From positions 17,496,036 through 17,560,035 of the forward strand of contig NC_057747.1 of the NCBI RefSeq assembly GCF_004010195.1: a stretch of DNA of 64,000 nt, read 5' to 3'. This document shows, in pieces, positions 584 to 64,000 of the stretch (the first letter of the stretch is position 1; every line of letters starts with the position of its first letter). This DNA is from Chiloscyllium plagiosum (taxonomy: Eukaryota). Under the pieces are notes generated by a model. It saw only the letters and a program-made list of their open reading frames with translations, had not been told where the DNA came from and searched no databases. Position numbers and translations under genes: made by a program.

Positions 584-3299
584 TATTAATTAAAATCCAA
601 TTCTGAAGTTCTGAAGAAACGTGAACTCAATTTCTCTCTCCACAGATGCTACAAGTCCTGCAGAGTTTCTCCAGCAATTTGTTTTCCATGTGACCGTTCA
701 TTGATATTGCTAAGTTGATATATGAATATTGATCCGAATCCTTGAGGTCGTCCTCATAGGTGTGTCAGTCAGCCCCAGCTGCTTTCACCATTTTCCAGTG
801 TTTTCTGTGGGTGCTGGACGGCTGGTTTGTGGCACAGTGAGAGGTCAACAGCGTGGGTTCAATTCCTGAACTGTCTGAGGTTACCGTGAAGGACTCTCCT
901 TCTCAGTCTCAACTATCCCCAGTGTCTCTCTATAATGACAGAGTAACCCGGTGGTCTCGTACGATTATGGTGACCTTTACTGGTGCAACATGTAACCTAT
1001 TTCAGTTTGAAGATATTTCATTCTACATCTTCGGTGTTACCTTCTCCCCAAAATGCTGACACAAAGAATTAATGACGTCTCGCCATTGCTAAACCCTGGT
1101 GACTCTAATGTAAAGTATGGAACAGCAGCCAGAGGTGTGTCTCTGGGCCACTGTAGTGGACTCAGTTCACTGGAACCACCAATTAAAACGCTTCCTGTTA
1201 CCATCATCGAAGTTTCTGCCTATGGAATAAATAATAATCCCCATTTCCCTTATAATTCTAAATCAAACCTTGAGGGTAGTAAAATTCTCTGACCTCGGGA
1301 TTTCAAATGATCTACCACATTTAGGGTTCCAGCTACAATCCCGGATGTAGAGTCAAACTTAGCCTTCAAAACCAAACCAGCTCCACTGTTACCAATCTCT
1401 GCGGCGAACTAGAATAACAGGGCTTCAGGAAACAGCTCTCCCTACTGCAGTCAGGAACCGACAGTGAGTGGGACTGATGTGGACTAGAATGATCATCACA
1501 TTTGGAATGGGGAGGGGCGTGCAGGAGGGAAGACGGGTGCTCTTGTGGTGCAGTGGTAGTGCCCCTACCTCTGAGCCACGAGGCCTGAGTTCAAATCTTA
1601 CCTGTTGCACAGGTTTGCAACATGTGTGAGCAAGTCAAACTAAAACCAAACTGATTTTCCTATTTAATTCACAGAACAGTTGAGAATAGTTCATCTCTGG
1701 TGACTACCACTGACATGAATAAAACAACTTTACCGCAGTTCTGGGGGCGGGGGTATCTTGTGACGCACTGGTGGTGTCCCTACCACTGAGCTGAAGGGCC
1801 TGGGCTCGAATCCAGAGGTGTGTGGTAACATGTCTGAGTCAGTTGATGTAAAAATACTCCTGAAGGTTAGTCCGCGATGACAAACAGCAGTTTGATCACA
1901 TTGATGTGAGATCACTGTGCTGTCTGCCCATTGTTCAGAATATGCTCCAGCCCCAGTCCGATTACACAGTCTACACAAGCTGAACAAAACTGGTGGCTTA
2001 ACTAAGCTTTTTCTTAAAATCAGGAAACAATCTCAGGGAAGAGTTTCAGTGCAGCGTTGAGTATGTGCTTGCCAGTCACTGCCCCTTAAACCAACCCAAC
2101 CTTGATCTCAAACCCAAAAACAGAATTTGCTGAAAAAGCTCAGCAGGTCTGGCAATATCTGTGGAGAGAAATCAGAGTTAACGATTTGGGTCCAGTGACC
2201 CTTCCTCAGAATCTCAAAACAGTTCTAACCGCTCAGCGATGTTACCTGCTCCTGGACTGTCATGTCTCCCTCCACCATGTCAGTTTACGTCCAGGTTAGA
2301 GATCTTGAAATCTTGTGCCGTACGAGGGGGCAAGAAATGTGGCTTGCTTGAACTGAGCAATGAACTGTTGGGTTTGATTAAATTGGGGGCGATTGGCAAT
2401 AAAGCGTCTCAACCGCATTGGTCAATGACTTTAGTTCAAGATCCATTAAAACAGCGCATTTGTAGCACGGTGGGAGTGTCCCTATCTCTGAGTTCAAAGA
2501 TATGCAGGTTAGGTGGACTGGCCATGCTAAATTACCCCTATAGTGTTCAGGGATGTGCAGGCTAGGTGGATTAGTCATGGGAAATGCAGGGTTACAGGGC
2601 TAGGAGAAGAGAGTGGCTCTGGGTCGGATGCTCTTCAAAAGAGAGTCGGTGTCGACTCGAATGGCCACACTGGAGGGCTTCAATGAATCTGCTTCTGAAC
2701 CGGAAAAAAAACCGGGTTCAAATCCCACCAGCTCCAGGGCTGAGCAATGCCATCTCTCATTCCTGATGAAGGGCTTATGCCCGAAATCGTCGACTCTCCC
2801 GTTCCTCGGATGCTTCCTGACCTGCTGTGCTTTTCCAGCACCACACTTGTTGACCCATCTCTCAACAGGTTGAGTAGAAAATATTTGCAAGCGAAAACGA
2901 AGGGCAATGGTTGTGTCCCTACCTCTGAGACAGGAGAGCCCATTTGAGTCCCACTAACGGGAGGGGGAAGGGAAGGGTCTCCCACCCAAAAAGAAATGTA
3001 CAAAACGGGGGAAATGAAGAGTATGGAAAAACGTCTCCAAAAATCAGGCGCTCTCCAAATCTTCAATATTCTACTCACAAACATTTCATCTTCCCCACCG
3101 CCCCCACCCCATTCTAGTTCTGAAATCGTTTCTGTTTATCTTAGAGTCGTGGAAGTTTGTTCCCAGTCCTGACGAAGCACCGATAAGTCTGTCAGAGAAA
3201 TCCTAGGGATGGGTTTGGATTGACTGAGTGCGCTGTCGGAGATCCACCCCCACTCCCCTCCCTCCGCCTCCCGCTGTCGCCAGGAGAGTGCGGGCCGGG

Positions 3300-3812: not shown

Positions 3813-3866
3813 AGGTGAGCGGAGGGAGAGAGCCCGTGCTACGCCGCTCGGTTTTAGGGGGTAGTC

Positions 3867-19200: not shown

Positions 19201-22200
19201 TTTTCAAGTTCATTAGCTGTTGTTTTAGTGTGTTGGTGGGTTTGTGGGCTACTATGGTGCCAAGAGGTCTGAGTAGACTAGATTACTTACAGTGTGGAAA
19301 CAGGCACTTCGGCCCAACAAGTCCACACCGACCTGCTGAAGCGCACCCACCCAGACCCATTTCCCTATGTTTACCCCTGCACCTAACACTATGGGCAATT
19401 TAGCATGGCCAATTCACCTGACCTGCACATTTTTGGACTGTGGGAGGAAACAGGAGCACCTGGAGGAAACCCATGCAGACACGGGGAGAATGTGCAAACT
19501 CCACACAGTCAGTCGCCTGAGGCGGGAATTGAACCTGGATCTCTGGCGCTGTGAGGCAGCAGTGTTAACCACTGTGCCGCCCACAAACAGAGTAGTCTGG
19601 CGGTAATTTCTTCAATATAGGGGAGAGTGGCTAGGGTTTCTGGATGCGTTTTGTCTGCTTATTTGGGATCGTTGCTGAGAAATCCATTCTTTTTTAATAC
19701 ACTGTTTCGATGATTTTCCTCTGCTCTTTGTAGTTCCTCTGTGCTTTAGTGTGTGGTGGCCCATTGAAATAATATTCTAATGCAGCTTTGTTTGTGGATG
19801 TTTGGATGATTGCTTCTGTAGTTCAATATTTGGTCTGTATGTGTGGTTTTCCTGTAGATGCTGGTTTGAAGTTTCCCATTGGCTGTTTGCTCTACTGTGA
19901 CATCTAGGAATGGCAGGTTGTTGTTTGTTGTGTATACAGACAACAAGCAAAACTAATGTCATTTACAAAGTACCTTGAAAGAACTGTAACAACCACTAAA
20001 TTGGACAAACAGGCAGAAAACTAGCCATCAAGATACATGAACATCAACTAGCCACAAAAAGGCATGACCCGCTCACACTAGTTTCCTTACATACGGATGA
20101 GGAAGGACACCACTTCAACTGGGACAGCACATCCATCCCAGGACAAGTCAAACAGAGACACGCATGAAAAGTCCTAAAAGCGTGGCAATCCAACCGGAAG
20201 TCTATCAACAAACACATTGACTTGGATCCCATTTACCACACTCTGAGAAAAAGAACAGGAAATGACACCACAATAGGAAATGATGTCACCACAAGAAATG
20301 ACATCACCAACCCAAGGAAAGCCAAACATATAAAGAGAAAGCAGGCTATGCCACCAGTGCTTCATCCGGAGGCTCACTGAAGATGTTACCTAGTATGGTG
20401 ATGAAACATCTGGAACAAACCTTCCAGCTCAGCGAGCAAACCTACATCTAGATCCATGTTAAAGGCCATGTACAATGTATTAGTTGAATTAGAGAATGGT
20501 CTTAGAATGAACTTTGGTATTGCAAATGCACCAAACACATTTCTTTCCATGAGTTATTTCAGTGTCCTTTGATCATTGGACTCTACCAGACATAACCTTA
20601 TACAGGGAGAAAGTGAGGACTGCAGATGCTGGAGATCAGAGCTGAAAATGTGTTGCTGGAAAAGCGCAGCAGGTCAGGCAGCATCCAAGGAACAGGAGAA
20701 TCGACATTTCGGGCATAAGGCTTATGCCCGAAACGTCGATTCTCCATAACCTTATACTGTTCACTTCTTAAGTATAGGTCTGTGAATCAATTGATCCGAA
20801 TTAATTTACAATTAAATGATGAGGCAAGTAAGTTGCTTGACAGAGTATGCTATAGATAACTAAATACCATGAAATCAAAACAAGAAAAATAATAAAATAC
20901 AAGCACCAAATATTTGGAAAATATCGTGGAATCCAATTGAATAAAATGAGAATATAATTCATACAGTCATCTTAAACGCGATTGCCTTTAAAGATCTGGT
21001 TAAACTAATGGGATATACTGGATTACTCATACCCTCAGACATTACTCAGTACATCTTGATGCACCATCAAAGATTGCTCATGCACAATTGACTTTTTTAT
21101 TGTGGGCTTTGCTGCCAATTCCAAAATCACTTGAGAAGGTGGTGGTGAGCAGCCTTCCTGAATGCTGCAGTCCATTTGGTTTACATAGATCTGCAATGTT
21201 GTTAAGGAGGGAGTTTGACCCAGTGACACATGAGGAACAGCAATATATTTCCAAGTCAGGTAGGTATGTGGCTTAGAGGGAAATTTGCAGGTGGTGGCGT
21301 TCTCACGTATTTGCTGCCATTGTCCTTTAGATGGCAGCGGTCATGATTTGAAAGGTGCTTTGGTGAAATTGTTATTACCACCATGCAAAATGAAGTCACC
21401 GATCAATATTTATAATGTTTAACACTGCATAACATAAAAAAGTCACATTACTACTAACTAATGATGGTGATAATAACTGGGACAGTTAAATCTAACTTTC
21501 TGCAAGCAATAGATTTGATCCAGCTGTAAAATTCCGTGAATTTGTAATAGAAGGTGAGTTAGAAAAAGTGGAAAATATATTTGACTAAAATCAATACTTT
21601 TTGAACAAATTGTGCCTGAAACATACAATGTGGAAGACAATTCCCCTTATTTATTGTGTACAATTGTAATTGTTTCTTTTGGACTTGTTTTGCTACTCCA
21701 GTCCATATGCAAATATGAAAGCTTCCTATTAGATTTACAGTGCTTCTGACCTACTGATTACAAAAGTCAATATTGAGTACAAGTACATTGGCTTCTTTCA
21801 GAGGTACAACAAGTAACTATCTTTGCACACATTGATAAAGACGTTTTCATGTTTCAATGATGTAAGTGACACATAAAAGTGAACGTGTACTTTATAAAAT
21901 CCAGAAGAACTGCGTATGCTGTAAATCAGAAACAAAAACAGAAGTTTGCCAAAAAGCTCAGCAGGTCTTGTAGCATCTATGCAGAGAAATCAAGGTCAAT
22001 GTTTTGGGGCGGGTGACCCTTTCTGCAGAAGGGTCACAGGACCCGAAACTTCAACTTTGATTTTTCTTCATACATGCTGCCAGACCTGCTGAGCTTTTCC
22101 AGCAACTTGTGTTACTATTTCTGAATGTGTATTTTGGTCAGTTCATGCTTTCCCTTATAGCATTGAGTACTTCACATTATGCTCTAGAAAGAGCACAAAC

Positions 22201-25200: not shown

Positions 25201-28200
25201 AGTCTTTGGAGTCCTAGCCCCAGTTTCCCTTCAGGTAAACTTGCAGGTTGAGTCTGTGGTTAGGAGGGTAGATATAATGTTGACATTTATTTCAAAAGGA
25301 TTAGAATATAAAATCAGGGATGTACTTCTGAGGCTTTATAGTTTCTGGTCAGACCACATTTGGAGTATTGTGCACAGATTTGAGTCCCATATCTCAGGAA
25401 GGATGGACTGACCCTGGAGCAGGTCCAGAGGACGTTCACGAGAATGGTTTCAAGATTGAAAGGCTTAACATATGAGGAACGTTTGAGGACTCCAAGTCTA
25501 TTCTCGATGGGGTTTAGAAGGATGAGAGGGGATCTAATTGAAAGTTAAAAAATGCTGAAGGGCTTGGACAGAGTGGACATTAGCAGGAGAGACTAGGATC
25601 CAAGCGCACAGCCTCAGAGTAAAGGAAAGACCCTTTAGATTGGAGATGAGAAACTTCTTTAGCCATAGATTGGCAAGTCTATGGAATTCATTGCCACTGA
25701 AGGCTGTAGAGGCCAAGTCATTAAGTAGACATAAGACAGAGATAGCCATGCGGTTGGTGCAGCTACCATCCCCACGGTGATTGATGACGTCACTTCCGCC
25801 ACCCATCATGGTCACTTCCACAGCCACTTCTGCTCCTCACAATTCCTCATAGCACACATGACATCACTTCCGCCCCTCACATCATCGCTGATGTCATACG
25901 CTCAGTGGTTTCCGCCCCCTCCCCCCACTGCCGCATGTGCCACCACTTCCGCCCCCACCAACGCCACTCACCTGCATTCTGCTGACATGCCCCTCGCAGA
26001 TCCCACTGTCACCATCCCCGACCCCCAGAACCCTGAGGGGAACACGACCCCTGCTCATGACTCCACCCCCATTCCACCCACCACCACACCACTCCAGTTA
26101 CAGGCTCCGCCCCCACACTGGGTCCCAGCTCCCAGTCCTGCCGAGTTTTCACTATTCCCCCAGACCTCCACCTCACTGAGGACGAACGATCAGTCCTCAG
26201 CAAAGGACTCACCTTCATCCCCCTCTGCCCACGCATCAATGAATTTAATATACACTGTGACGTCCGGATGCTGCCTGAACTGCTGTGCTTTTCCAGCACC
26301 ACTCTAATCTAGAATACGACAGAGATAGATAGGTTCTTGGTTGTCATGGGTATTAAGGATTACGGGGAGAAACCAGAGAATGGAATTGAGAAACTTATCA
26401 GCCATGATTGAATGGTGGAGCAGACTTGAAGGGCTAAATGGCCTAATTTGTGCTCCTATGTCTTATGGTTTTATAGTCTTTTCTCCATATTCCTGCCACG
26501 AGCTATTGCACTTGAAATTTTAGTTACAAGAAGGGAAATGCTTCATGTGTAATTCAGATGATGTTGCTAACCAGAACTTTCTCCCTTGACCATAAAACTT
26601 GAAATCCAATATTAAATCAGCAGTTGTTAAATCAGGATTGCTGCTGTATGCAATGGGCATTAGGAATTTGATGCTTTTTGACCGTGATTGTACAGGCTTT
26701 ATTCATTTTCTTGCAATTTCATGAAGTTGCAGCCCTTGTTGAAGTTCTTTCCATTTGCATGCTGCTATCCCATTAATGGTAAAGGATCCCTGAGCATTGG
26801 TGAGATTACACCTTGAATGCTGTGGGCAGATTTGGTCTCCTTACCTGAGGAAGGATGCTCTTGCTATGCAGGAATTGCAACGAAGGTTTTTAACCAAACT
26901 GATTCATAGAGTTATAGAGTCATACAGCACAGAAACAGATCTATCGATCCAACCAGTCCATGCCAACCATGATCCCAAACTAAACTAATCACACCAGCCT
27001 GTGCTTGGCCCATATACCCCCAAAAATTATTAATTCATGTATTTATCCAAATGTATTTTAAATATTATAACTGTTCCCACATCCATCACTTCCTCTGGAA
27101 GTTCATTCCATACATGCACCACTCTGTGTAAAAAAATTGCCTCTTATGTCTTTTAAAATCTTTCTCCTCTTGCCTTAAAAATATACCCCAATAATCTTGA
27201 AAACCTCCCCCCTAGGGAAAAGATATCTGCCATTCACCATCTGTATACCACTCTTGATTTTATAAATCTCTGTACGGTCACCCTACACTCCTACACTCCA
27301 GTGAAAAAGGTTCTAGCCTCACCAGCCTCTCCCTATTACTCAAACGCTCCATTCCCAGTAACATCCTGGTAAATCTCTTCTGAACCATCTCCAACTAAAT
27401 AATATCCTTGCTATAACAGGGTGACTAGAACTGGACACAGTACTCTAGAACAGGCCTCACCTGTACAACCTCAACATGATGTCCCAACTCCTATACTCAA
27501 AAATGTAAGCGATGAAGGCAAGAGTGTTAAACACTTTCTTAACCACCCTTTCTATATGTGATGCAAACTTCAAAGAATTATGTACTGGAACCCCTGGGTC
27601 TCTCTTTTCTACAACACTACCCAAAGCCCTACTTTTAATTGTATAAGTCCTGCCCTTGTTTGTTTTACCAAAATGTAACACTTCTCATTTATCCAAATTA
27701 CACTCCATCCGTCACTATTCAGTCCACTGACCCAATTGATCAAGAACTCTTTGTAAACTTAGATAACCATCTTCAATTTTGGTGTCATCTGCAAACGTAC
27801 TAACCATTCCTTTTATATTTTCATCTGAATGATTTATACAAATGACAAAGAAAAGTGGATCCAGCACCGATTCCTGTGGATTCTATGGTCACAAGCCATG
27901 GATGGTAGGACTAACATCTAAGGAGAAATTGAGTCAGTTGGAATTTCACTAAAATTTAGGAGAATGAGGGGGGGTTATCTGACAGAAACCTAGAAAACTC
28001 TAACACGACTGGATAGGCTAAATACAGGAAGGATGCTCTCAACGATAGGGGAGTACAGAACGAGGGTTTGAGGATAAGGATAGTTTAACCTCTGGACTGA
28101 GATGAGGAGAAACGTTTTCATCTGAACCTGTGAAATTTACTACCATGGAAAGTAGTTGAGACCAAAACATTGTGTTTTCAAGAAGGAGGTAGAAGTAATT

Positions 28201-38900: not shown

Positions 38901-41900
38901 CTCTACAAAAACTACAATTCAATAAATAACCAAGGAAAAGAAGAAAAATAAATAAACAAACAATAAAATTAAACCAAATTATAGCACATTAACTTAAATT
39001 ATATGCAATTAAATTACTACACACCATGCAATCTCACTGAAGCTCCCCACCACTAGGAGCAATAATAAGCAAACCCATACTTGTTAAGGATTCTTCCTCC
39101 CCCAGGGACCCCGGACCACCAGACACAACCCTCACAGCTACACAAAGGCTCTAATCAGTATAGTCGAGAAGTCTGCATCAATATAATTCAAAAAGGGCCG
39201 CCATGTTCTGTAAAACAACTCAGTTTTCTGGTGCACCATACTTGTAAGGAAGTCCAGGGGGATGTATTCCATGACTAACCTACGCCAGCTCAAACGTCCC
39301 AGGGGAATCTCTGACACCCAGCTCATTAGAATGTTCTTTCTCGCACAGAATGAAAGAATATTAAGCAATTTGGAAGACCCAAAAGGAGGGACACCGGATC
39401 CAACTTACCCTCAATTCCCAAAACCTCTTCCAAAACACTCGCTATGGCATCCCAATATCTGACCACACATAATGAGTGAGAGTGCCAATGTCCATTGGGG
39501 CACATGGGGGACACTCCTGTCTTAAATTTCGCAAGCCGTTCCAGTGCCAAGTGAACCCTATGGAGTAGCTTCAGTTGAATAGCCTGGATCTTATTGCAAA
39601 TTGAGATCTTCCTAACATTTTCCCAGATATCCTCCCGCGTCTCTGACGAGATTTCCACCCTCAATTCTTGAGTCCAAGTTCTGCATAGCTGCTCATGTCC
39701 TTCAAAACTTCCTAACAAGTGATAGAGTGCTAACCGAGAGGGTGCCTGTAAACTGGAGCACTCTCCTCTCCATATCTGACTTGTAGGGACTAACTATCAA
39801 TGTAGTCTTTTTTTGAATGAAGTCTGTAACCTGAAAGAGATCTCTCCTAGGTAACTTAAATTGCTGACTCAGCTGTTCAAAGGACATAATGACCTCCTTG
39901 TCAAATGGATTTCCCAAATAGGAGATTTCTCTGAACTCCCAGAGCTTAAAGCCAGAGTCCATCGACCCTGGCTGGAATCCCAACATTCCCACTGTGGGAG
40001 TGAAAGGGGAAGTTTTTTTTGTAAAATATATCATTCTCCATGCTTTAACTGTGTTTAGGACAATTGGGTTTCTGCAGTGGTCCATAACAGTTCTCATCTT
40101 GTCCACAAACAACAAATTAATGAGGGGGCATTTTGTCTGGGAGGCCTCAATGTCCTGAAGAAGGGCTAATGCCCGAAACGTCGATTCTCCTGTTCCCTAG
40201 ATGCTGCCTGACCTGCTGCGCTTTTCCAGCAACACATTTCCATCTCTGATCTCCAGCATCTGCAGACCTCATTTTCTCTTCAAAGGCCTCAATGTCCAAC
40301 CAGACAATGAGTTGGGACCTGACGGGCCCATTCAGCGACATAGGATAGTAAAGAACTCAAGGGTATTTCTTAAAGTCCAGAAAATCTAGACACCCCCTCT
40401 CCTGAGGAAGCTGCAATTTATCTAGAGTCGTATAGAGATGTATAGCATGGAACCAGACCCTTCGGTCCAACCTGTCCATGCCGACCAGATATCCCAACCC
40501 AATCTAGTCCCACCTGCCAGCACCCGGCCCATATCCCTCCAAACCCTTCCTACTACCTCTTAAATGTTGCAATTGTACCAGCCTCCACCACTTCCTCTGG
40601 CAGCTCATTTCACTCTCACCCTAAACCTATGCCCTATAGTTCTGGACTCCCTGACCCCAGGGAAAAGACTTTGCCTATTTACCCCATCCATGCCCCTCAT
40701 AATTTTGTAAACCTGTATAAGTCGCCCCTCAGCCTCCAACTGTCCAGGGAAAACAACCTCAGCCTGTTCATCCAGCTTAATATGAGGCAGCCTATGATGC
40801 CAAATAAAAGATCCAAGCCAGCTGTAAAGCCTGCGTAGTGCTTGCCTTGGCAGCATCAATGGGAGCATTCACATGGGATATAATAAGCAAGGAAGAACAT
40901 TCATTTTAACCAGAGCTATCCTGCCCAACCAAGATATTGGAAGGTCTTCCCTGTGCCGAAGGTCCAGCCTTATCTTCTCTAACAACTGTACATAGTTGGC
41001 TTTATATAATTGATCGAAGACCGGGGTGATAAAAACACCTAAATACAGAAAACCTCCCTGTGACCACCAGAAAGGGAAACGGGTTCCACCCCCAAAGTTG
41101 GATATACTGGTAAGACCCCCCCAACAGGCATGGCCTCCAATTTCATGAAATTAATTTTCCTGAAAACAAACCAAATAGATTAATCACTTGTATTAAGCGG
41201 GACACGGATGTCATTGGATCCGTTAAAAAGAGAAGAACGTTAATCACATAGAGGGTGATTTTCTGCCCGCCTGATCCTACCTCTGGGGCAGTTGTATTGG
41301 GATCAGTCCAAATGTCTTCTACCAGCAGCTCGATCAGTAGTGGCAAGAGAGGGCACCCTCGTGGGCAGCCTCTGCTGACACTAAAACTATCTGACCTTAT
41401 TATCCATTAGTGCGAATTGTTGCTTTCGGATAATTATACAACACTGCCACCCATTTGGCAAAAACCCCTCCAAGACCAAACCGTTCCATGACATAAAAGA
41501 GCTACGGCCACTCCACCCAATCAAGTGCTTTCTCTACATCGAGGGAGACTACTAAACCCAGGATCAATCTTTGCTGGCATATTTGGACCATATTTTGTAC
41601 TCTTCTAATATTGTTGGTAGACCTACAACCCTTAATAAAACCCCTCTAGTCCTCCTTTACAATGAAAGGCAATGCCATCTCCAACCTTTATGCCAGCATT
41701 TTCGACAGTAACAATATGGACCTGTACAAAGTGCAATCTTCTGGCGCTTTTCCTTTCTTAAGAATAAGAGAAATATTTGCTTCTCTTAAAGAAGATGGGA
41801 GGCAGCCCTGACTGAATGAGCTGGCATGGCCAGCTTGTCTATAAACTCCTTATAAAACTCACTTTGAAATCCATTTGGTCCGGGCGCTTTCCCACTCTGG

Positions 41901-44900
41901 AGCAGCCTCACCACCTCCTGTATTTCCTAAATTGTCAGGGGGACGTTCAGAAAGGACGCTGCTCTGAGGTTACACCCGGAAGGTCCAGGGTCTTAAAAAA
42001 GGATTCCACCTTCATCATTCTGTCCTCACAGCCTTCCGACCGGTACAGCTCACAGTAAAACTTTCTAAATGCTGCGTTAATTCTTTTGGCATTGCAAGTA
42101 AGAGTAGCAGCACTCTCTCTCTGATGGATGTAATAGATTGGGGGGGCGTTCTTCTTTCTGGCCAAGTATGCTAGATATCTACCCAGTTCATCACATACTT
42201 AAACAATTTCTGTTTCGCAAAAGAGATTTCCCTCTTTGCTGACTGGGTAAGTGCAACATTCAAAGTAGCCCTAAGGGCTGTAATCCGCTGCAATTTAGTT
42301 ACAGAAGGTCTGTCAAAGTATGCTAACTCAGCTGCCTCCAGGCGAGCCTTGAGCAAACGTTGCTGTTCTCCCTCTGTCGCTTCTGGGTCGCAGAGTAAGA
42401 AATAGTCAAACCCCGTGCCTGGCCTTGGCAATCTCCCAGAGCACCGATGGATTACTGGCCATACCTAAATTAATATCTCAAAAGATTTTAAACTCCCGTG
42501 AAAAATACTCTATAAGATTGCTATCTTTCAGGAGGAAAGGGTCTATGCGCCAATGCCAGGAGCCTATCCCATTACCGTCGGTCTTGACCTCCACGTACAC
42601 TGCCACATGACCAGAAACGGCTATGTTCCCTATTCTGCAAGACTGCACCGAGTTCAAAAAGGTCGATCAGACGAAAAAAGTGTCACATTTAGTATAGCAC
42701 TTATGTGGATTAGAAAAACAGGTAAAATCCCTATCTTCGAGGTGAAGACATCTCCACACATCCACCAACTCCAGCTCCCTGTTCAGGTCCACCAACTGCA
42801 TGGATTGTGGAGACATGCCTGCAAGGCCCCTAGGTATCCTGTCCACTTTGGGGTCAATAAAATGATTAAAGTCTCCCCCTATAATTGTATAACGCGCCCC
42901 AAGGACCATCAATCTAGAAAGTGCATCCGTTAAGAATTTAAGGAGATGTGTCGGGGGGGTTGGGTGGGCCGGGCAATATACATTCAGAATCCCATATTCC
43001 TCTCCATGTATTAAAGCTTTAAGAATTATGAATTGCTCACACTCATTCTTAATTTGGCCTAGCATTTGAAATGGGAGATTTTTCTGGATGAGAATAGCAG
43101 CTCCTCTACTTCTCAAATTAAAGAATGAGAAAAATACCTGGCCAAATCCTCCCTATTGCAACTTCAAATGCTCCTTCTCGGTCAAATGTGTTTCTTGCAA
43201 CAAGGCTACATGACCATCTCTTTTCTAAGGCTTGACAGTATATTTTTTCTCTTAATTGGTGAATGACTCCCCTTAACATTCCAGGCACACCATTTAAAAG
43301 AATGGCTAGCCATGATCGTCCAAAACAGTCAGTGATCCCCTGGGAGGAAGAATCCCACTCATAGCACGCCGAGTGAAAACCACAAGCAGTTTGTATAAAA
43401 TGCAACTTCCAAAACTACCAAATCAAAACTTCTAACAACTATTTCTACAACATACCAATATATAACAAATGAAAGGAGACTTTCCCCCTTGTCTACAAGG
43501 GCGCGCTCATACCACCCATTAGCCCCACCATGACTCCTTCTGGCTGAAGCCATAGTCCTGCCCAGACAATACAAAGTAAGAACAAAAATACAAATATCTT
43601 GTAACAAGAAAGTTAAAAGTGGGCACTCAGCCCATGCCCTCCATACTGTAGAAGGTTTTCCTGAAGAAGGGCTTATGCCCGAAACGTCAATTCTCCTGTT
43701 CCCTGGACCAGCAACACATTTTCAGCTCTGATCTCCAGCATCTGCAGACCTCACTTTCTCCTCCATACTGTAACCCTAGCACTCCTGATAGAACAAAAAA
43801 ACCACTCCCCGTTTCCTCCCACCGCCCACCCCCCCCCATCTCAAAATGGAAAAGACGAATAAAAGGAAATAATAAGAAGAGAAAACCCAGGAAAATAAAG
43901 GATGATGGGAACGGAGAGAGAAAGGGGAGGAAAGAAAAAAAAGGAAAATAATTATGACCCCGACACATATTAAAAAAAACAAGACCACCCTCCAACAACC
44001 AGGTAAACCTGGCAAATTACAGAGAAAAATAAAATAAACATAATTGTCCATATTATTAAAGCCAGTCAGTCTATTTTAAAGTATCCAAGAAATCCTTTGC
44101 CTTTTCCGGTGAATCAAAATTGAACACGGACCGTCCGTGGCTGAAATGCGGTATTGCCGGATATCTAACAGAATACTGGATAGTCAAGTTCCTCAGCCAC
44201 CTTTTTACCTCATCAAAGGCGTTCCTCTTGTGAATCACAACCAGAGAGAAGTCCTGGAAAAGCATAATTTGTGATCCTTTATACATCAGAGCCTGAGGAT
44301 CCTTCCCTCGTGCTCTAGAGGTTTCCAGCATCATTGCTTATCTCTATAATGCTGGAGTCGCACTAGGACTGGGCGGGGGTGCTGGTCTGATCCGGGCCTG
44401 TGCACTGTGACCCGGTGGGCCTGCTCGACCTTCACATGGCCTACCTCGACTTTCAGCCTCAGAAACTGTGGGAGCCACTGCTCCAAGAAGCTGATGAGCT
44501 GACCTTCCTCCTCCCATTCAGGAAGCCCCACCAAACGGATGTTCTTCCGATGACCTTGATTTTCGAGTTTGTCGACCTGCTCCTCCAAGGCCTGCACTCG
44601 GCATTCTAGGGCCTGTATCCAACCGCTGAGGATTCTGCTGCGGTCGCAGAAGCCATGGCCTGTTGCTCCGCCTCCCCAACATGCTGTCCGAGGTGCTGGA
44701 TCTCCTGGTCATGCCTCTGCAGCATGACTGAGGTTGATTCAAGTCTGGCCCAAGTCTGGCTCCTCTGTCGACGAATCGATCTCCTCTCAGAGTCTCACGA
44801 ACTCCGAGATCAGGCTCTGCCCCATAGGTGAGTCCCCTGAGGTGGTCACAGAGACGGGGGTGCGGCCACAGATGTGTCCATTGTTCCTGCCTGATGCGAT

Positions 44901-50215: not shown

Positions 50216-50503
50216 TATGACCTGTGCTGATTGCTAATTCTACCAGAGTGCCTCCATCTCAGAAGATGCCCATTATCAGTTTGCTGTATCCCAAGCCAAA
50301 AGCAATACCGAGAATATTTCCTCTCATTTCAGTAACAAACACATTAAAATGATAATATTACAAAAGTACATTACAGTCCTGATCTTTGCCTATCTAGCTT
50401 TGCTACTGATTATGGATTTAGTATTTTGGAAAAGAAGCATTTTACTTGTAAAAAGACTTGAAAATTTAGACCTTTTCCTGTAATTGAAACAGAAAAAGAT
50501 CAG

Positions 50504-50720
50504 GAGAAAGTGAGGACTGCAGATGCTGGAGATCAGAGCTGAAAATGTGTTGCTGGAAAAGCGCAGCAGGTCAGGCAGAATCCAAGGAGCAGGAGAATCG
50601 ATGTTTTGGGCATGAGCCCTTTCCTCATTCCTGAAGAAGGGCTCATGCCCGAAATGTCGATTCTCCTGCTCCTTAGATGCTGCCTGACCTGCTGTGCTTT
50701 TCCAGCAACACATTTTCAGC
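50504..50720. mobile_element. Palindromic Penelope-associated element, 84-bp inverted arms, 15-bp TSD ACAGAAAAAGATCAG
   Basis: Arms at 50538-50621 and 50637-50720; TSD at 50489-50503 and 50721-50735; hammerhead-like core at 50631-50658. Confidence 0.88.
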
Positions 50721-52850
50721 ACAGAAAAAGATCAGTAAACCACTTAATAGAGACTTTCGTTAGAGTATTCAAAGCAGTTGCTTATGCAGCCAAAAAAAAT
50801 GTTATCATTGGAAAGATAAAGGGTTAAAATTATCCACTGAAATTGAGTTGTAATAAATGATTACTGGCAAAGGAACTGGATGAGTATTTGAAAAAGATGA
50901 CTAGGAAAATACAGGCAAATGATAGTGGGAGTTGCATGACTGTAATGATCTCCTACAGTGGTGTAATTTCAACAAATCCATTTATCGTCAAAATAATCAG
51001 AAACTTCACTGCTGCATTTCTGATGAGTTGTCTATTACTTAATTTGATTTTTTGGCGAAACAGCACAGCTTCAGAACAAATATGAACAAATTTATGTGGC
51101 AGGTTCTGAGATTAAATGTCACTTCTGATTGATTAGAATGAAGTGTTAGAAAAATTATTTTCCTGTAACTTCCTAGCAGCAAACCTTATACGACAGGACT
51201 GGGAAAGGCAAAATAGCAGTTAGCATTTCTTCATTTGCTGCCACAGAAATTCTTTAACTTTTCATGCCATCGCATTCATTAGTAACTGGGCATTTATTTA
51301 AATAGGGTACAGAAGCCATTGCAAAAGTCAAGCTGAAAAGCTTGCATAGGGTTTTTAGCAGAAGTAAATCTGAAGTAGGTGGGAATCACTGTCAGGAAGG
51401 GAATTACAGTCAGAAAATTGTGACACTTTAGTCTGCTAGGAGCATTGTTAAAGCCAGTTAAAATATCAGGAGTTTAGAGAGGTCAGATTCTAGAGTCATA
51501 TTTACTGAACAGAGCTATTCTGAATTAACAAGCACCATTTTTGCAAATCATAGCATAAAAACGCAGAATAGAGAGGAAAATGCATTGATTTTTAATGAAT
51601 TTATTCTGTGACAAATATTATGTAAACAATTGTACACTCGTATTATGCTCTTAATTCTTTGTATTCAACCTTAGATTTGGAATTTATTCATATTAACATC
51701 ACCTGCCTGTGAATTTCAGCATGACCTTCAGCTGCCTTCATGGCACAGTTTTTGTTTCATGAATATAAAATATGTGATAAAAATAATATAGATGATAGAA
51801 AGTGGGGCTGTGATTGAACTTCTGTTTTCAGATGACACCATAAACAATTTGAGTTTTGCTATCAAGACTTGTCAGCTAAAACTGTGACAAAATTACAGCC
51901 TTATTATTCACTCCCAACCAGCCATAATTCTGTTCCAGTTTCAAGTATACATTTCTGATCCTTGCCAGACTATAAACAAATCTGCACAAAAAATTGCAAT
52001 GATTCACAATAGGTATTGTGCAAACATGATTTTTTTTTATCATTTGCATATAACCTTAGTACAAAATAAAATTTGGACAAAATCTATATTCTTATATCAT
52101 TTGTCAGGAGTGATTTTGTGGTTTTATGTCAATTTTGCACAGGAAAGTATAAATGTACGTCAAACATTTAACTCAACAGTTTTCAATGCCACACTCTTTT
52201 AATTAATGTTTGCAAATCTGATAGTGGAATTAAAATACTGTACATAATTTAGGGGTACAAATGTATCTTTAAATTGTGTCTACCCCATAAAATTTCTTCC
52301 TGAAGAATTAATAAAATGGAAAATGTGTGTAAAAATGGGGAAGAAAGACTTTCATTTCCCCATTTTGCATCTTGCACCATCATCAGCATGAACACCCAGA
52401 CTTTGTGAAAGACTGTGACAGCTATCTCATCCCATTATTATATTCTGATGACCCTTATTGCCTCTTCCAGCTAGCAGGTTACTTCAAATCAAAACAGTTA
52501 AATTGTTCAATAAATTTGATAAATTATTTTGCAGTAAACTGATTGATGAACTGAGGAATTACAGCCAAGCATTTTAATATTTCGAGAGAATAAGACAACT
52601 TTTTTCTGCTCAATACTATCTTGCATGCATCCTGTTCAGACCTTATAACTTTTTTCAACTTACATACGCCTTAAAAGACCATTTTAAACAAATGGGTGGA
52701 AACAGATTGTGGTGTAAATAGTACAGGAAGCCTACTGACCCTCAAATGACCTGGACAACAAAACACTTTGAAACCATGTTAACATTGCCACAGGAGCTAA
52801 AATTGTGAATATGAAAAATCTAAAATTGAAACAAGGAAAGCTGTTTCCAG

Positions 52851-56231: not shown

Positions 56232-56325
56232 ATGCCACAGGCAGCGCTAGTGACAATTCGTTACGGGCCGTATGAATCCTGTGGGGTGGTGGATTACAGG
56301 ACCAGCCGCCTGCAGGGCTTGCAAG
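56232..56325 (+). CDS. C10orf53: C10orf53 (UPF0728) homolog, coding exon 1 (MPQAALVTIRYGPYESCGVVDYRTSRLQGLQ); later exons not found in the window
   Basis: Matches the recalled human N-terminus MPKNAVVILRYGPY...FRLQGLQ; strong donor AAG|GTAAGC; same position downstream of CHAT as in human. Confidence 0.88.
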
Positions 56326-58082
56326 GTAAGCAAAGGCCGCAAGCTCACCTCTGCCTGATGAAGGGCTTTTGCCCGAAACGTCGAGTCTCCTGCTCCTCGG
56401 ATGCTGCCTGACCTGCTGTGCTTTTCCAGCAGTACACTGACCTAGACTAAAGCTCCCAACACTCTACCTGCAGCGCTATTCACTCTGAAAGAATGGCAAC
56501 CCGATGAGGGGAATTATTTGTAAACCTCCATTGGACAAAAAAAAAACGCAAAATAAATTCTCTGTCCCCAGTTGTATATCTGCCTGAAATGATTTGGGAA
56601 GTGGAGAAATTATGTTAATTCTACATGGAGTCTTTACAACTAGAGTGCTAGGAGAAAGTGAGGACTGCAGATGCTGGGTATCAGATAAGGGCTTATGCCT
56701 GAAACGTCGATTCTCCTCTCCTCGGATACTGACTAACTAATAACTAGAGTAACCGTATGAAGTTCTGGTCACGACTCGAAACTTAACTATGTTTCTCTCT
56801 CCACCGATGCTGGGTTTGTCCAACAATTTCTGTCTCTGTCACAGTCCCACTGTCTAGCCATGCCATTTAGCACAGGCACAGAGCCAGGGAGTGTGTTATG
56901 GGTGTCAGCAGTCTTCAGCCAACACAGGGGTATAGCCTTCATTCAGGGGATTCCAGCCCAGAAAGTCAAGGGCAGCCTCTGCCACCAGACCAGAGGCTTG
57001 GCCATAGACAGTCCGTTAGGATGCTCTCAACATAATGTTGGGCTGCACACCACTCGTTTTGACTCAATTTGCTCTATTGCCAGCTGTTTTTGTTTTCTGA
57101 TTTTTCAAGAAGCAAGCTATCTCAAGTCATTGTTTATTTTGAAGTCAAGTTACAGATGAGCTGGCGCCAGGGGACCTGTGTATAAATGGAGGTTCGGGTA
57201 GCTGAATGGTCTGGAGATGAGGGACCACTTATTTTTCTTCCTTGTTTCTTTGTGTGTGTGTGTAGTAACTCAGTAAAAAAAAGACACCATTGTGCAAAAG
57301 CTTTATTCCATACCTCCCACCACCAGGAAAACACCTATGTGGCCAGTGAACCATTAACAAGCAAAGCTGGATAAGGACAATGCTTAAGTGAAGAACATGA
57401 AGGGGAAGGGAGAGACCAGTTATCAATGACAAAGCTCTCTTGTCTGCCAATGACTATGCTATTGACTCCGAGTTGGCTGAACAGCTTATGAATGTGAATG
57501 CTTGAGGGAGATTGAATCTCCAAAAAAGGGAAGGAGCTGTTTTCCCTCTGCAGTTAAAAAACATCTCAAGCCTAAAGATAGCAGTTTATTTCCCCTTGCA
57601 ACAAGCTGTGACTTTAAATGAATAAGTCAGAAATTTTTCTAAGTTACAAACCAGTCACCCTGTGCCTGCTACAAACAGATAAAACTTCCTGCAGAAGGAA
57701 GATCAAGAAACAGCATTCTGATCAGAAGAAAAATTATCCTAGGCAAACCCTGTGAACAGAGACTGGGAACTGTCTTCCCAATCTTTCACTCCACCCAGAA
57801 CATGCGTTTTTGTGTCTGTGTGTGTGTATAGAGGGGAGTCCTATAAATGTTGGAGTTTTTATTAGTATAGTTATATGTCAATGGTTCATCATTGTTTCTG
57901 TTGGAATCAATGTATTTGCAATGAATCGTACTTTTTGTTAAGTATAGAAACCTAGTCTGCATTTTCTGCCACTCTGGGTCTAATTGATAATTAAATTGGG
58001 GAACTCTGTGTTTTAACGTTGGTGATGACTCAGGGAAGAGCGGGACTTGACTTTCAACTCTATCCAGGTGACATGTAACTAG

Positions 58083-58513
58083 GTTAAAAATCACACAATA
58101 CCAGGTTATAATTCAACAGGTTTTTTGGAAAGTACAAGCTTTTGGAGCGCTGCTCCTTTGGCAGGTAGCTAGTGGGGCAGGATCATAGGACACAGAATTT
58201 ACAGGAAAAGATCAAAGTCTAATACAACTGATGCAATGTATTGACCAAACCTAGATTGCTGTTAAGTCTTTAATCACTTAAAATGGGGTCACAGGTTTCG
58301 ATTCATTAATATGTAAATATATTAATATTTGTTCAATACATTGCATCAGTTGTATGACACTTTGATCTTTTACTATAAATTCTGTGTCTATGATCCTGCC
58401 CCACTAACTATCAGATGAAGGAGCAGTGCTCCAAAAGGTTATACTTGCAAATAAACTTGGTGTGATTTTTAACTTTGTCCACCCCCGTCCTACACTGGCA
58501 CCTCCACATCAGG
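58083..58513. mobile_element. Fold-back element with about 150-170-bp inverted arms, 9-bp TSD TGTAACTAG
   Basis: Arms at about 58083-58250 and 58327-58474; TSD at 58074-58082 and 58514-58522; decayed gatgaaggagcagtgctccaaaag hammerhead-like core. Confidence 0.75.
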
Positions 58514-59258: not shown

Positions 59259-59349
59259 CTTTCTTGAATTGCTACAGATATATTCGGTGTAAGTAGTCCC
59301 CAATGTTGTGACTACTTACACCGAATATATCTGTAGCAATTCAAGAAAG
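59259..59349. repeat. Perfect 40-bp inverted repeat with an 11-nt loop
   Basis: 59259-59298 is the exact reverse complement of 59310-59349. Confidence 0.95.
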
Positions 59350-60329: not shown

Positions 60330-63300
60330 GAAAGGCTACAGTAGTGAATAGAGTGGGTTCTTTCTTGATTATATGTTTTGGAGATATGTCTCTTGATTAA
60401 ACTTAAAATATAAGCCATAACTATTAATTTAACCTGGGGCAGTGTTTGTAGAGGAATAAGATGGTGTTAGTTTCTGGGTCTGTACATTGTGAAGAAGCAA
60501 AAATGGCCTTTAGTAGAGTGATATGCGCTTCTTGTCAGATGTGGGAGTTTAAAAAGTTTAAGGATTACAGCGTATTATATCTGCCATAAATGCTGTTGGT
60601 TGCGAATCTTATCAGATTGAATGGATCAGTTGGAGAGACGGTTAGAAGCAATGAGGAATTTGCAACAACAACAGTACGTGATGGATGGCATTTATAGGAA
60701 GTGGGGGGGGGGGGTGGGGGGAGTCTCAGATACAGTCACATAGATGGGTTAACTCCAGGAAAAGTAAGAGAGGTAGGCAGCTAGTACAGGAGTCTTTTGT
60801 GGATATACCCATTTCAAACAAGTATGCTGTTTTGGAAAATGTATGGGGTGATGGATTCTCAGGGGAATGTAGTATGAACAGCTAAGTTTCTGGTATTGAG
60901 ACTGGCTCTAATGCAACAAGGCTTCCAAGAGATCAATTATGTTCGGGGATTCTCTAGTCCGAGGTATAGACAGACGTTTCTGTGGCCAGCAGTGAAAAAT
61001 CAGAATAGTGTGTTGCTTCCCTGGTGCCAGGATCAAGGATGTCTCAGAGAGGATGCAGAATGTTCTCACGGGGAAGAGGGGCCAGCAAAAGGTCATTGTC
61101 CACATTGGAACCAATGATATAGGAAGGGAAAAGGATTGAGATTCTGAAGGGAGATGACAGAGAGTTAGGCAGGAACTTAAAAAGGAGGTCCTCGAGAGTA
61201 GTCATATCTGGATTATCCCGGTGCTATGAGCTAGTGAGGGCAGGAATAGGAGGATAGAGCAGATGAATGCATGGCTGAGGAGCTGGTGTATGGAAGAAGG
61301 ATTCACATTTTTGGATCATTGGAATCTCTTTCGGGGTGGAAGTGACCTGTACAAGAAGGACGGATTGCACCTAAATTGGAAGGGGACTAATATACTGGCA
61401 GGGAAATTTGCTAGAGCTGATCAAGAGGATTTAAACTAGTAAGGTGGGTGGGGGAAACCCAGGGAGATGATGAGGAAAGAGGTCAATCTGAGACTGGTAC
61501 AGTTAAGAACAGAAGTGAGTCAAACAGTCAGGGCAGGCAGGGACAAGGTAGGACTAATAAATTAAACTGCATTTATTTCAATGCAAGGGGCCTAAGAGGG
61601 AAGGCAGATGAACTCAGGTTTGGAATACGGGACTGGGATATCATAGCAATTACAGAAACATGGTTCAGGGATGGGCAAGACTGGCAGCTTAATGTTCCAG
61701 GTAACAAATGCTGGAGAGAAAGGGAGGCAAGAGAGGAGGGGGAGTGGCGTTTTTGATAAGGGATAGCATTAAGTTGTGCTGACGGAGGATATTCCTGGAA
61801 ATACATCCAGGGAGGTTATTTGGGTCGAACTGAGAAATAAGAAAGGGATGATCACCTTATTGGGATTGTATTATAGACCCCCCCCAGTAGTCAGAGGGAA
61901 ATTGAGAAACAAACTTGTAAGGAGATCTCAGCTATCTGTAAGAAAATAATAGGGTGATTATGGTAGGGGATTTTAACTTTCCAAACATAGACTGGGACTG
62001 CCATAGTGCTAAGGGTTTAGATGGAGAGGAATTTGTTAAGTGTTTAAAAGAAAATTTTCTGATTCGTATGTGAATGTATCTATGAGAGAAGGTGCAAAAC
62101 TTGGTCTACTCTTGGGAAATAAGGCAGGGCAGGTGATTGATGTATCAGTGGGAGAGCACTTTGGGGCCAGCGACCATAATTCTATTAGATTTGAAATAGT
62201 GATGGAAAAGGATAGACCAGATCTAAAAGTTGAAGTTCTAAATTGGAGAAAGGCCAATTTTGACGGTATTAGGCAAGAACTTTCGAAAGCTGATTGGGGG
62301 CAGATTTTCGCAGGTAAAGGAACGGTTGGAAAATGGGAAGCCTTCAGAAATGAGAATCCAGAGAAAGTATCTTCCTGTTAGGGTGAAAGGAAAGGCTGGT
62401 AGGTATAGGGAATACTGGATGACTAAAGAAATTGAGGGTTTGGAAAAGAAAAAGAAGGAAGCATATGTCAGGTACAGGCAGGATAGATTGAGTGAATCCT
62501 TAGAAGAGTATAAAAAAACTAGGAGTATACTTAAGAGGGAACCCAGGAGGGCAAAACGGGGCCATGAGATAGCTTTGGCAAATAGAATTAAGGAGAATCC
62601 AAAGGGNNNNNNNNNNNNNNNNNNNNNNNNNNNNNNNNNNNNNNNNNNNNNNNNNNNNNNNNNNNNNNNNNNNNNNNNNNNNNNNNNNNNNNNNNNNNNN
62701 NNNNNNNNNNNNNNNNNNNNNNNNNNNNNNNNNNNCAAAAGGGTAACTAGGGAGAAAATAGAGCCCCTCAAAGATCAGCAAGGTGGCCTTTGTGTGGAGC
62801 TGCAGAAAATGGGGAGATACTAAATGAGTATTTTGCAACAGTATTTACTGTGGAAAAGGATATGGACGATATAGACTGTAGGGAAATAGATGGTGACACC
62901 TTGGAAAATGTCCAAATTACAGAGGAGGAAGTGCTGGATGTCTTGAAACGCAAAAAGGTGGATAAATCCCCAGGGCCTGATCAGGTGTACCCTAGAACTC
63001 TGTGGGAAGCTAGAGAAGTGATTGCTGGGCCTCTTGCTGAGACATTTGTATCATTGATAGTCACAGGTGAGGTGCCTGAAGACTGAATGTTGTCTATCGT
63101 AGTGCCACTGTTTAAGAAGATGGTAAGGACAAGCCAGGGAACTATAGACCGGTGAGCCTAATGTCGGTGGTGGGCAAGTTGTTGGAAGGAATCCTGAGGG
63201 ACAGGATGTACATGTATTTAGAAAGGCAAGGACTGATTAGGGATAGTCAACATGGCTTTGTGCGTGGCAAATCATGTCTCATAAACTTGATTGAGGTTTT

Positions 63301-64000
63301 ATGAGGAAGTAACAAAGAGGCTTGATGAGGGCAGAGCAGTAGATGTGATCTATATGGACTTCAGTAAGGTGTTCAACAAGGTTCCCCATGGGAGATTGAT
63401 TAGCAAGGTTAGATCTCACAAAATACAGGAAGAACTAGCTATTTGGATAGAGAACTGGCTCAAAGGTAGAAAACAGAGGGTGGTGGTGGAGGGTAGTTTT
63501 TCAGACTGGAGGCTGGTGACCAGTGGAATGCCACAAGGATCGGGGCTGGGTTCTGTACTTTTTGTCATTTACATAAATGATTTGGATGCAAGCATAAGAG
63601 GTACAGTTAGTAAGTTTGCAGATGACACCAAAATTGGAGGTGTAGTGGACAGCGAAGAGGGTTACCTCACATTATAACAGGATCTTGATCAGATGGGCTA
63701 ATGGGCTGAGAAGTGGCGGATGGAGTTTAATTCAGATAAATGCGAGGTGCTGCATTTTGGGACAGCAAATCTTAACAGGACGTATACACTCAATGATAAG
63801 GTCCTAGGGAGTGTTGCTGAAGAAAGAGACCTTGGAGTGCAGGTTCATAGCTCCTTGAAAGTGGAGTCGTAGGTAGATAGGATAATGAAGAAGGCGTTTG
63901 GTATGCTTTCGATCATCGGTCAGAGTATTGGGTTAAGGAGTTGGGAGGTCATGTTGCGGCTGTACAGGACATTGGTTCGGCCACAGTTAGAATATTGCGT
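60330..64000 (+). mobile_element. Long decayed CR1 LINE: ORF1 with SGNH esterase, ORF2 APE and RT; runs off the window
   Basis: GDSLVRG..CCFPGARIKD..VHIGTND (about 60945-61120); CIYFNARGL..IAITETW; MDFSK..DDTKIGG; many frameshifts. Confidence 0.9.
62607..62735. other. Assembly gap (129 N)
   Basis: Run of N inside the CR1. Confidence 0.99.

Follow-up and report, generated by a model that had tools for sequence, protein, structure and literature searches.

A palindromic insertion in Chiloscyllium plagiosum as a probable pair of Penelope-like element stubs with a minimal hammerhead motif

Described systems and the insertion at 50504-50720

Penelope-like elements (PLEs) that encode an endonuclease (EN+ PLEs) are known for an insertion layout in which an inverted, 5'-truncated pseudo-long terminal repeat (pLTR), a tail of 30-40 bp at one end and a target-site duplication (TSD) occur together, and which has been explained by self-priming or by endonuclease resolution (PMC3846280, PMC8557442). 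Here, we analysed 64,000 nucleotides from Chiloscyllium plagiosum (NC_057747.1, positions 17,496,036 to 17,560,035; the whole stretch is called the window hereafter) and in particular a palindromic insertion of 217 bp at 50504-50720, which an earlier note made from the sequence alone had placed in a separate, non-autonomous and retrozyme-like family. From our point of view, the insertion rather represents two pLTR pieces of an autonomous PLE, likely reverse-transcribed from one RNA by two priming nicks, a reading that we hold with a probability of roughly 0.7; that it is a PLE stub composed of pLTR pieces at all appears very probable. Ribozymes of this type (PMC4209133) and insertions of this layout (PMC3846280, PMC8557442) have already been published, and as an element it is therefore an ordinary one. 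The value of the locus lies in data on two questions raised in the literature, namely how PLEs form inverted ends with a one-sided tail and whether weak PLE hammerheads cut in vivo.

With the minimal hammerhead ribozymes (HHRs) of Cervera and De la Pena 2014 (PMC4209133), the motif of the insertion shares type I, the absence of loop III, a palindromic 15.2-16.2, an extra base between 9 and 10.1, G10.1-C11.1 and a helix I of about 4 bp, and in both cases there are many consensus families with covariation and mostly single motifs scattered genome-wide as truncated PLEs. Unlike the motifs of that study, stem II has 4 bp here, cartilaginous fish are not named in the accessible part of its text, and about 4,000 copies in the coelacanth and 9,000 in Xenopus compare with 96,402 matches of the exact pattern in the 3.56-Gb genome analysed here, in which a reversed-pattern control had no matches. 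All features of the EN+ PLE layout are found as well, namely head-to-head arms with an inverted truncated pLTR, a one-sided tail of about 35 bases, a TSD, partial tandems, heavy 5' truncation and a CX2-5CxxC linker as in Neptune. Compared with the accessible parts of those papers (PMC3846280, PMC8557442), it is different that an entire insertion is made up of just two stubs, each about 100 bases long, that the restriction to one tail is near absolute (80/82) and that 5' ends pile up at the ribozyme. The anole Poseidon element PAc (Frangieh et al. 2024, PMC11167929) likewise has a ribozyme at the border of pLTR and open reading frame (ORF), and its tail is delimited by two reverse transcriptase (RT) start sites at about 90-125 bases downstream; in vitro, both strands are cut and extended, and a dimer is predicted. 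PAc belongs to another clade, however, and in the accessible part of that paper neither a strand difference in the start site nor RNA ends at the ribozyme cut are reported, and the two sites are not tied to inverted insertions.

The features of the insertion are given below, with pLTR positions counted from the first C of the CUGA core as 0.

50489..50503, no strand: left TSD, 15 bp, identical to 50721-50735
50504..50621, minus strand: inverted arm, pLTR +6 to about +125, tailed, without the CUGA core
50504..50537, minus strand: 'tail' extension of 34 bases, exclusive to the inverted arm; its end would be the distal RT start site
50619..50720, plus strand: sense arm, pLTR -12 to +89, tail-less; the joint overlaps the other arm by 3 bases
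50627..50630, plus strand: 5' strand of stem I (ATTC), the A of which lies within the 5'-end pile-up zone and would be the likely transcript start
50631..50658, plus strand: minimal type-I hammerhead motif with CUGAAGA, extra A, stem II, GAA and helix III 4-mer (descriptor features in PMC4209133)
50639-50642 with 50647-50650, plus strand: strands of stem II
50654-50657, plus strand: helix III 4-mer AUGU; predicted cut after 50658
50659..50662, plus strand: 3' strand of stem I (GATT), three of four pairs
50721..50735, no strand: right TSD, 15 bp, identical to 50489-50503

Over 84 bp each, the two arms (50538-50621 and 50637-50720) can be aligned with six mismatches, four of which are at CpG sites, so that the 84-bp fold-back with an exact 15-bp TSD described in the earlier note stands. 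The CUGA core is present in the plus-strand arm only, because the minus-strand arm begins 6 bases into the motif. As RNA, the hairpin is predicted to fold at -165.8 kcal/mol (z -21.7), and the duplex encloses stem II, GAAA and the cut site; the motif would thus be buried as had been proposed, although its sequestration by the antisense arm seems incidental. 'Recently mobile' would fit part of the family, in which 7/35 fold-backs have arms that are identical over 78 bases; this copy has 6/84 differences. With an AUGU helix III and buried in the hairpin, its ribozyme is probably dead, and we regard in vivo cleavage by this particular copy as having a low likelihood.

The parent element and its ribozyme

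The evidence for an autonomous parent comes from pLTRs that are physically linked to RT sequences. The sense arm is identical at 99/102 bases to a pLTR located 1.3 kb downstream of an RT (locus L106), and agreement with six RT-linked pLTRs ranges from 91 to 99 of 102 bases. Similarity to the RT was used to retrieve 15 loci, and in 11 of them the motif follows on the same strand at a distance of 1.25-1.63 kb; of the remaining ones, one has it upstream, one on the opposite strand only, and two reach N. Four frames were compared with Pfam, and RVT_1 was found in 2/4 and GIY-YIG in 2/4, with both together in the frame of L096 (E 1.5e-4 and 2.9e-4, both under the curated cut-offs, GIY-YIG just under), and with RVT_1 in L101 (E 4e-10) as the sole Pfam match above the curated cut-off. 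It follows from the RT/GIY-YIG linkage and the pLTR identity that we are dealing with an autonomous PLE and its pLTR, and the possibility of a motif without any link to such a frame is contradicted by the linked loci. Mobilisation by a Penelope RT, as put forward in the earlier note, is thereby borne out, whereas the separate non-autonomous family is not, given that the sequence equals an autonomous pLTR and that the fold-backs appear to be rebuilt at each insertion.

Longer copies show the end of a reading frame upstream of the ribozyme and the start of a reading frame downstream of the tail, and 569 exact tail-to-ORF junctions were counted for the subfamily of the copy at 50504-50720. The resulting order is HHR, N-terminal frame, RT, GIY-YIG and HHR over about 3.5-3.9 kb, as judged from the ribozyme spacing in three loci; the elements examined are broken or interrupted by N runs. 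A CX4CxxC linker precedes the endonuclease in L096 (CNRRRCNTC) and L084 (CHRRNCKAC). As a CX2-5CxxC linker between RT and endonuclease marks Neptune, with such a motif also present in Nematis (PMC8557442), the parent element would be of the Neptune type by this linker motif.

In subfamily B (L032, L033, L042), the frame is open straight across ribozyme and tail into the ORF, and in subfamily A, the ribozyme-tail region is not in the same frame as the ORF. Eight loci (L052, L055, L060, L065, L067, L071, L072, L078) contain short tandems, in which the first unit extends into the ORF by 90-430 bases before a second unit follows, which mostly begins just ahead of the ribozyme, as if the RT had jumped from the RNA 5' end back to a downstream point.

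By sequence comparison, and in agreement with the earlier note, the motif itself is a minimal type-I hammerhead as already known from Penelope elements. The core (CUGANGA...GAAA...UH), the extra base before stem II and G10.1-C11.1 are invariant columns in 12/12 aligned copies, and the palindromic helix III 4-mer is ACGU in 105/124 copies. Where the upstream side is intact, stem I is 4 bp long and its third pair is a U.U mismatch; the shorter stems described in the note result from 5' truncation. Across subfamilies, A and B have ATTC/GATT as stem I, including the U.U at pair 3, and C has a perfect ATTC/GAAT, whereas in an older related family it reads AGTT/AACT, with pair 1 switching from C-G to U-A. 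Stem II changes from GGGC/GCCC to GAGC/GCTC in a sister subfamily, as the main form among 100 listed of 959 matches, and to a 5-bp GGGTC/GACCC in the older family (1,165 matches). In the 12 hand-picked copies, two stem II pairs vary on both sides. For both stems together, two-sided changes are found at 4/8 pairs, and pairing is possible in 88.5% of the cells compared with 6-50% in slid alignments, with counts that are inflated by the relatedness of the 12 sequences. Stems I and II covary between subfamilies as judged from the alignment.

None of the five window motifs is predicted to adopt the hammerhead fold as a monomer, which is expected because helix III is absent, and their monomer folds are no more stable than those of shuffled sequences (z -0.6 to -1.9). 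An Rfam scan with an E limit of 10 gave 19 matches, none of which was to a hammerhead family. For dimers, cleavage has been described by Lunse et al. (RNA Biol; as cited in PMC6765202). The AUGU at 50654-50657 gives a predicted dimer duplex of +1.1 kcal/mol vs -3.1 kcal/mol for ACGU. In the stubs, the ribozyme would be a passenger that cleaves only as a dimer or with the help of a protein.

Arm ends, U6 joints and the origin of the hairpin

Arm ends were surveyed in 755 kb, consisting of the window and 90 loci, most of which were centred on a known motif. The 3' ends form two clusters about 35 bases apart, one near +90 and one near +126, which resemble the two RT start sites of the anole element. 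The 5' ends accumulate just before the ribozyme, with 95/179 of the arms that reach position 0 ending within -12..0 (0.061 per base vs about 0.004 in upstream bins, an excess of about 15-fold), although about 100/260 arms had been picked for a whole motif, which inflates the counts at or before position 0. No pile-up is found at the cut site (+9..+29, 0.0023 per base), and 16/19 of the units that read on into the ORF are likewise without long upstream sequence.

Among 55 head-to-head pairs, 45 combine a tailed with a tail-less arm, one is tail-less on both sides, none is tailed on both sides and 9 are unclassifiable; a TSD of 12-17 bp is present in 34/55. In 42 further loci chosen by their centre alone, 35 were mixed, one was tailed on both sides and 6 were unclassifiable, so that for both sets 80/82 classifiable fold-backs have one tailed and one tail-less arm. 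No tail-to-tail pair occurs in the 755-kb survey. In 23/45 pairs, including the copy at 50504-50720, it is the arm without a tail that extends further 5' by 5 bases or more, and in 10 pairs it is the tailed arm (P 0.035), which argues that the tail-less arm is often no copy of the tailed one and that neither arm is then simply copied from the other. Of 150 single arms, 75 are tailed, 58 are tail-less and 17 are of other form. At least 6,299 fold-backs with exact centres exist genome-wide. Their joints show short overlaps clustered around stem II, and their centres fall into 31 kinds in 50, the commonest of which recurs up to 7/50, with four centre types that carry the tail on either side (L247/L271, L260/L263, L250/L264, L244/L254).

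A process similar to the twin priming of L1 elements could account for this pattern. In L1 twin priming, a second nick primes internally on the same RNA, the head-to-head joint forms at short homologies and the TSD is kept; the inverted pieces do not overlap and the priming sites are variable, whereas here the start sites are fixed and the arms overlap, which results in a palindrome. Accordingly imagined, the element RNA would begin at the ribozyme's 5' border, somewhere from about -4 to -12, which is the simplest reading of the 5' ends that pile up there. A protein would then nick both DNA strands 12-17 bases apart and thereby give rise to the TSD, and on one and the same RNA the first nick would prime near +126 and the second near +90. 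Each cDNA would extend to the RNA 5' end, so that most products would have only 95-135 bases, and two cDNA ends might finally be connected in head-to-head orientation where a few bases match, while a single priming nick would yield a single arm. We regard this one-RNA twin-priming account as likely. The broader proposal, that the roughly 100,000 stubs are the fossil record of a Penelope reaction in which a two-headed enzyme primes both nicked strands at two fixed sites about 35 bases apart on one RNA, close to the front of a transcript with the hammerhead at its beginning, run-off yields stubs of a strong-stop kind and head-to-head palindromes, a jump to the 3' pLTR yields long copies, and a germ-line cut is followed by U6 ligation before copying, has in our estimation about an even chance of being correct.

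A further line of evidence comes from U6 sequences. When sequence preceding the element was screened for the 3' end of U6, 7/13 matches, located in six loci (L282, L283, L286, L287, L288 and L293, each near position 1500), join exactly at +28, which is the first base past the predicted cut, so that all seven joints fall on one bond. U6 was confirmed by Rfam at three of these loci and the other three hold 14-25 bases of the U6 end. The remaining 6/13 matches, as well as 2/3 matches of another pattern, were no U6 joints; near the 5' pile-up zone (probed from about -21 to +45 with a pattern that misses subfamily C), 0/8 pattern matches are U6. Five of the loci belong to subfamily B (29/121 sampled copies) and one is D-like. 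The joint is found in both arms at L286 and L293, the latter with an additional, partly duplicated U6 piece, and in the tail-less but not in the tailed arm at L283. That the same joint sits in both arms of L286 and L293 makes two independent RNAs very unlikely.

In chimeras of U6 and LINE-1 (Moldovan et al. 2019, PMC6789731), the oligo-U 3' end of U6 is likewise found on a 5'-truncated retroelement RNA that was subsequently retroposed, but the joints are variable and the nuclease is unknown, whereas here the seven joints share the bond of the predicted ribozyme cut. Since RtcB ligates U6 to 5'-OH ends (PMC6789731) and hammerhead cleavage leaves such an end (PMC6155905), U6 at the scissile bond can be taken as an indirect sign of cleavage in the vertebrate germ line. 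On the basis of these joints, in vivo cleavage by the hammerheads of the sister subfamilies seems quite likely. In locus L284, a U4-like sequence (2031-2162, minus strand) lies under the Rfam gathering score.

In addition to the selection of arms mentioned above, several observations weigh against the one-RNA account and its ribozyme-edge start site. The proposed RNA start is based on DNA only, and the signal of an extra G at -5 is weak (12/23), with G being frequent at -2, -8 and -9 too. No U6 joint was found for subfamily A, to which the copy at 50504-50720 belongs, or for subfamily C, which together make up 83/121 sampled copies, and a shorter pattern gave the same result. L286 and L293 taken alone are compatible with a fold-back, and a fold-back of the first cDNA followed by a lopsided loss of the palindrome centre could also produce longer tail-less arms. 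RNA reads of a related or identical organism, of which one raw-read run (a poly(A) single-cell library) contained 2,111 from both strands and a second run 0, have no pile-up of starts or ends, in a library type that is unable to reveal a cut or a start and hence speaks neither for nor against either; 93% of them continue into dissimilar sequence. Among the records listed as carrying the sequence, none is an RNA record. An intact full-length ORF was recovered from none of the examined copies. Finally, a stub of the partner arm is absent beside 95/97 single arms and present at 2, and a TSD of at least 8 was detected in 26/108 single arms by a narrow search. Twin priming is therefore not obligatory, and the idea that every insertion is twin-primed, with a hidden partner stub at single arms, was rejected.

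With the same PLE origin, the first cDNA might instead snap back and be copied up to the +90 site, where the endonuclease resolves it. Such a course would fit with the short joint overlaps around stem II, with rare variants and U6 joints that are common to both arms, and with the published proposals of self-priming (PMC3846280) and of tail resolution by the endonuclease (PMC8557442). A snap-back copy cannot contain sequence that the first arm lacks, however, and the tail-less arm is the one with the greater 5' extent in 23/45 pairs, by more than 200 bases in L008, while L283 has U6 in the tail-less arm only. Moreover, tail-less single arms are so common (58/150) that +90 must be a start site in its own right, and we consider the snap-back unlikely.

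Considerably less plausible still is the retrozyme-like family of the earlier note, in which short or palindromic copies would be transcribed, released by the ribozyme and re-inserted by a Penelope RT. The very high copy number, the discrete TSD-flanked units and the recurrence of some centres could be cited in its favour, as could PLE-derived retrozymes in vertebrates, one chondrichthyan included, which share with the present copies a relation to PLE pLTRs, a type-I hammerhead and a non-coding nature (bioRxiv 10.64898/2026.07.22.740005). In that preprint, however, retrozymes are defined as tandem arrays with a ribozyme per unit, whereas in the window, the copies are scattered as single or head-to-head pieces that are identical to an autonomous pLTR; no genome-wide search for arrays was made, and the short two-unit tandems found elsewhere contain ORF sequence. 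Also, no sequence feature specific to the short form was found, the cut site shows no accumulation of 5' ends, and binding of the anole element needs ORF sequence past the tail, which the stubs lack. The diversity of centres and the tail on either side further argue against a copied master palindrome, which would fix both, and together with the 99/102 identity to an RT-linked pLTR they contradict an independent non-coding propagation.

Least probable of all, and to an extent that we would hardly entertain it, is that the hairpin represents a host regulatory element, for instance of the acyltransferase gene 3' region, with the antisense arm silencing the ribozyme. It lies about 2.4 kb past the last Carn_acyltransf-matching exon, the predicted fold is exceptionally stable, and family copies do appear in the RNA reads. 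The hairpin is, however, one of thousands of similar fold-backs, its arms have decayed mostly at CpG sites, helix III is mutated and the reads come from both strands and mostly run into unlike sequence; nothing suggests a host function.

The preferred reading, two priming nicks on one RNA, leads to sharp predictions for an in vitro PLE system by virtue of the one-tail rule, the fixed zone of 5' ends and the U6 joint that both arms can share. Among literature titles and the beginnings of abstracts, leaving subscription journals, Repbase and Dfam aside, we found no paper that makes the points on the single tail, the U6 joint and the 5' zone.

Further copies in the window and neighbouring genes

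Over the whole window, the motif pattern matches at 2763, 40155, 43661, 50631 and 56355, always on the plus strand, and in 100 shuffles there were 0 matches. The stem II loops at these positions are TTAT, TAAT, TTAT, TCAT and TTTT, and partial copies exist near 20720 and 56690, so that the recurring motif, its variable loop and the partial copies were all correctly described in the earlier note. Besides the hairpin, the following copies were delimited.

2755..2854, plus strand: tail-less single arm with one extra base in helix III; 10-bp flanking repeat (at 2756)
20607..20745, no strand: fold-back of a tailed minus-strand arm from +7 and a short sense stub, without the CUGA core; 13-bp TSD
26265..26316, plus strand: tail-less copy cut off at +43, no ribozyme
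40153..40278, plus strand: tailed single arm, start at -2; 14-bp TSD
43658..43760, plus strand: tailed single arm with an internal deletion; 13-bp TSD
56354..56448, plus strand: tail-less single arm, start at -1; no convincing TSD found
56652..56737, no strand: small fold-back of a minus-strand tail piece and a sense stub that begins at +6; flanked by a 9-bp repeat

The exact TSDs of 13-15 bp that had been reported for several copies are present at 50504, 20607, 40153 and 43658, but elsewhere the repeats are shorter (10 bp, 9 bp) or, at 56354, missing. In the exact repeats of the copies at 20607, 40153 and 43658, one joint has 3-7 additional bases. The older related family (5-bp stem II, AGTT/AACT stem I) is represented at 2127-2209 (minus strand), 21952-22106 and 38294-38327, and its copy at 22 kb resembles a fold-back.

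Regarding the host genes, the plus strand of the window contains an intronless frame of 535 codons for a major facilitator superfamily (MFS) transporter (3858-5465), exons matching choline/carnitine acyltransferase (10718-48198) and an exon matching UPF0728 (56232-56325), an order that we take to be that of the vertebrate cholinergic locus (SLC18A3, CHAT, C10orf53). The hairpin is located behind the last of the acyltransferase-matching exons and 5.5 kb before the UPF0728-matching exon, and the copies at 20.6, 26.3, 40.2 and 43.7 kb lie between acyltransferase exons. All five intact motifs are in sense with the host genes, and the copy at 56354-56448, with an intact core, begins about 29 bases past the apparent splice donor of the UPF0728-matching exon.

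Two further near-perfect inverted repeats, at 58210-58367 and 59259-59349, have weak matches to microRNA models and are possibly similar to miniature inverted-repeat transposable elements. A frame at 63291-63677 (plus strand) with a match to RVT_1 (E 6e-15) is a fragment of another retroelement.

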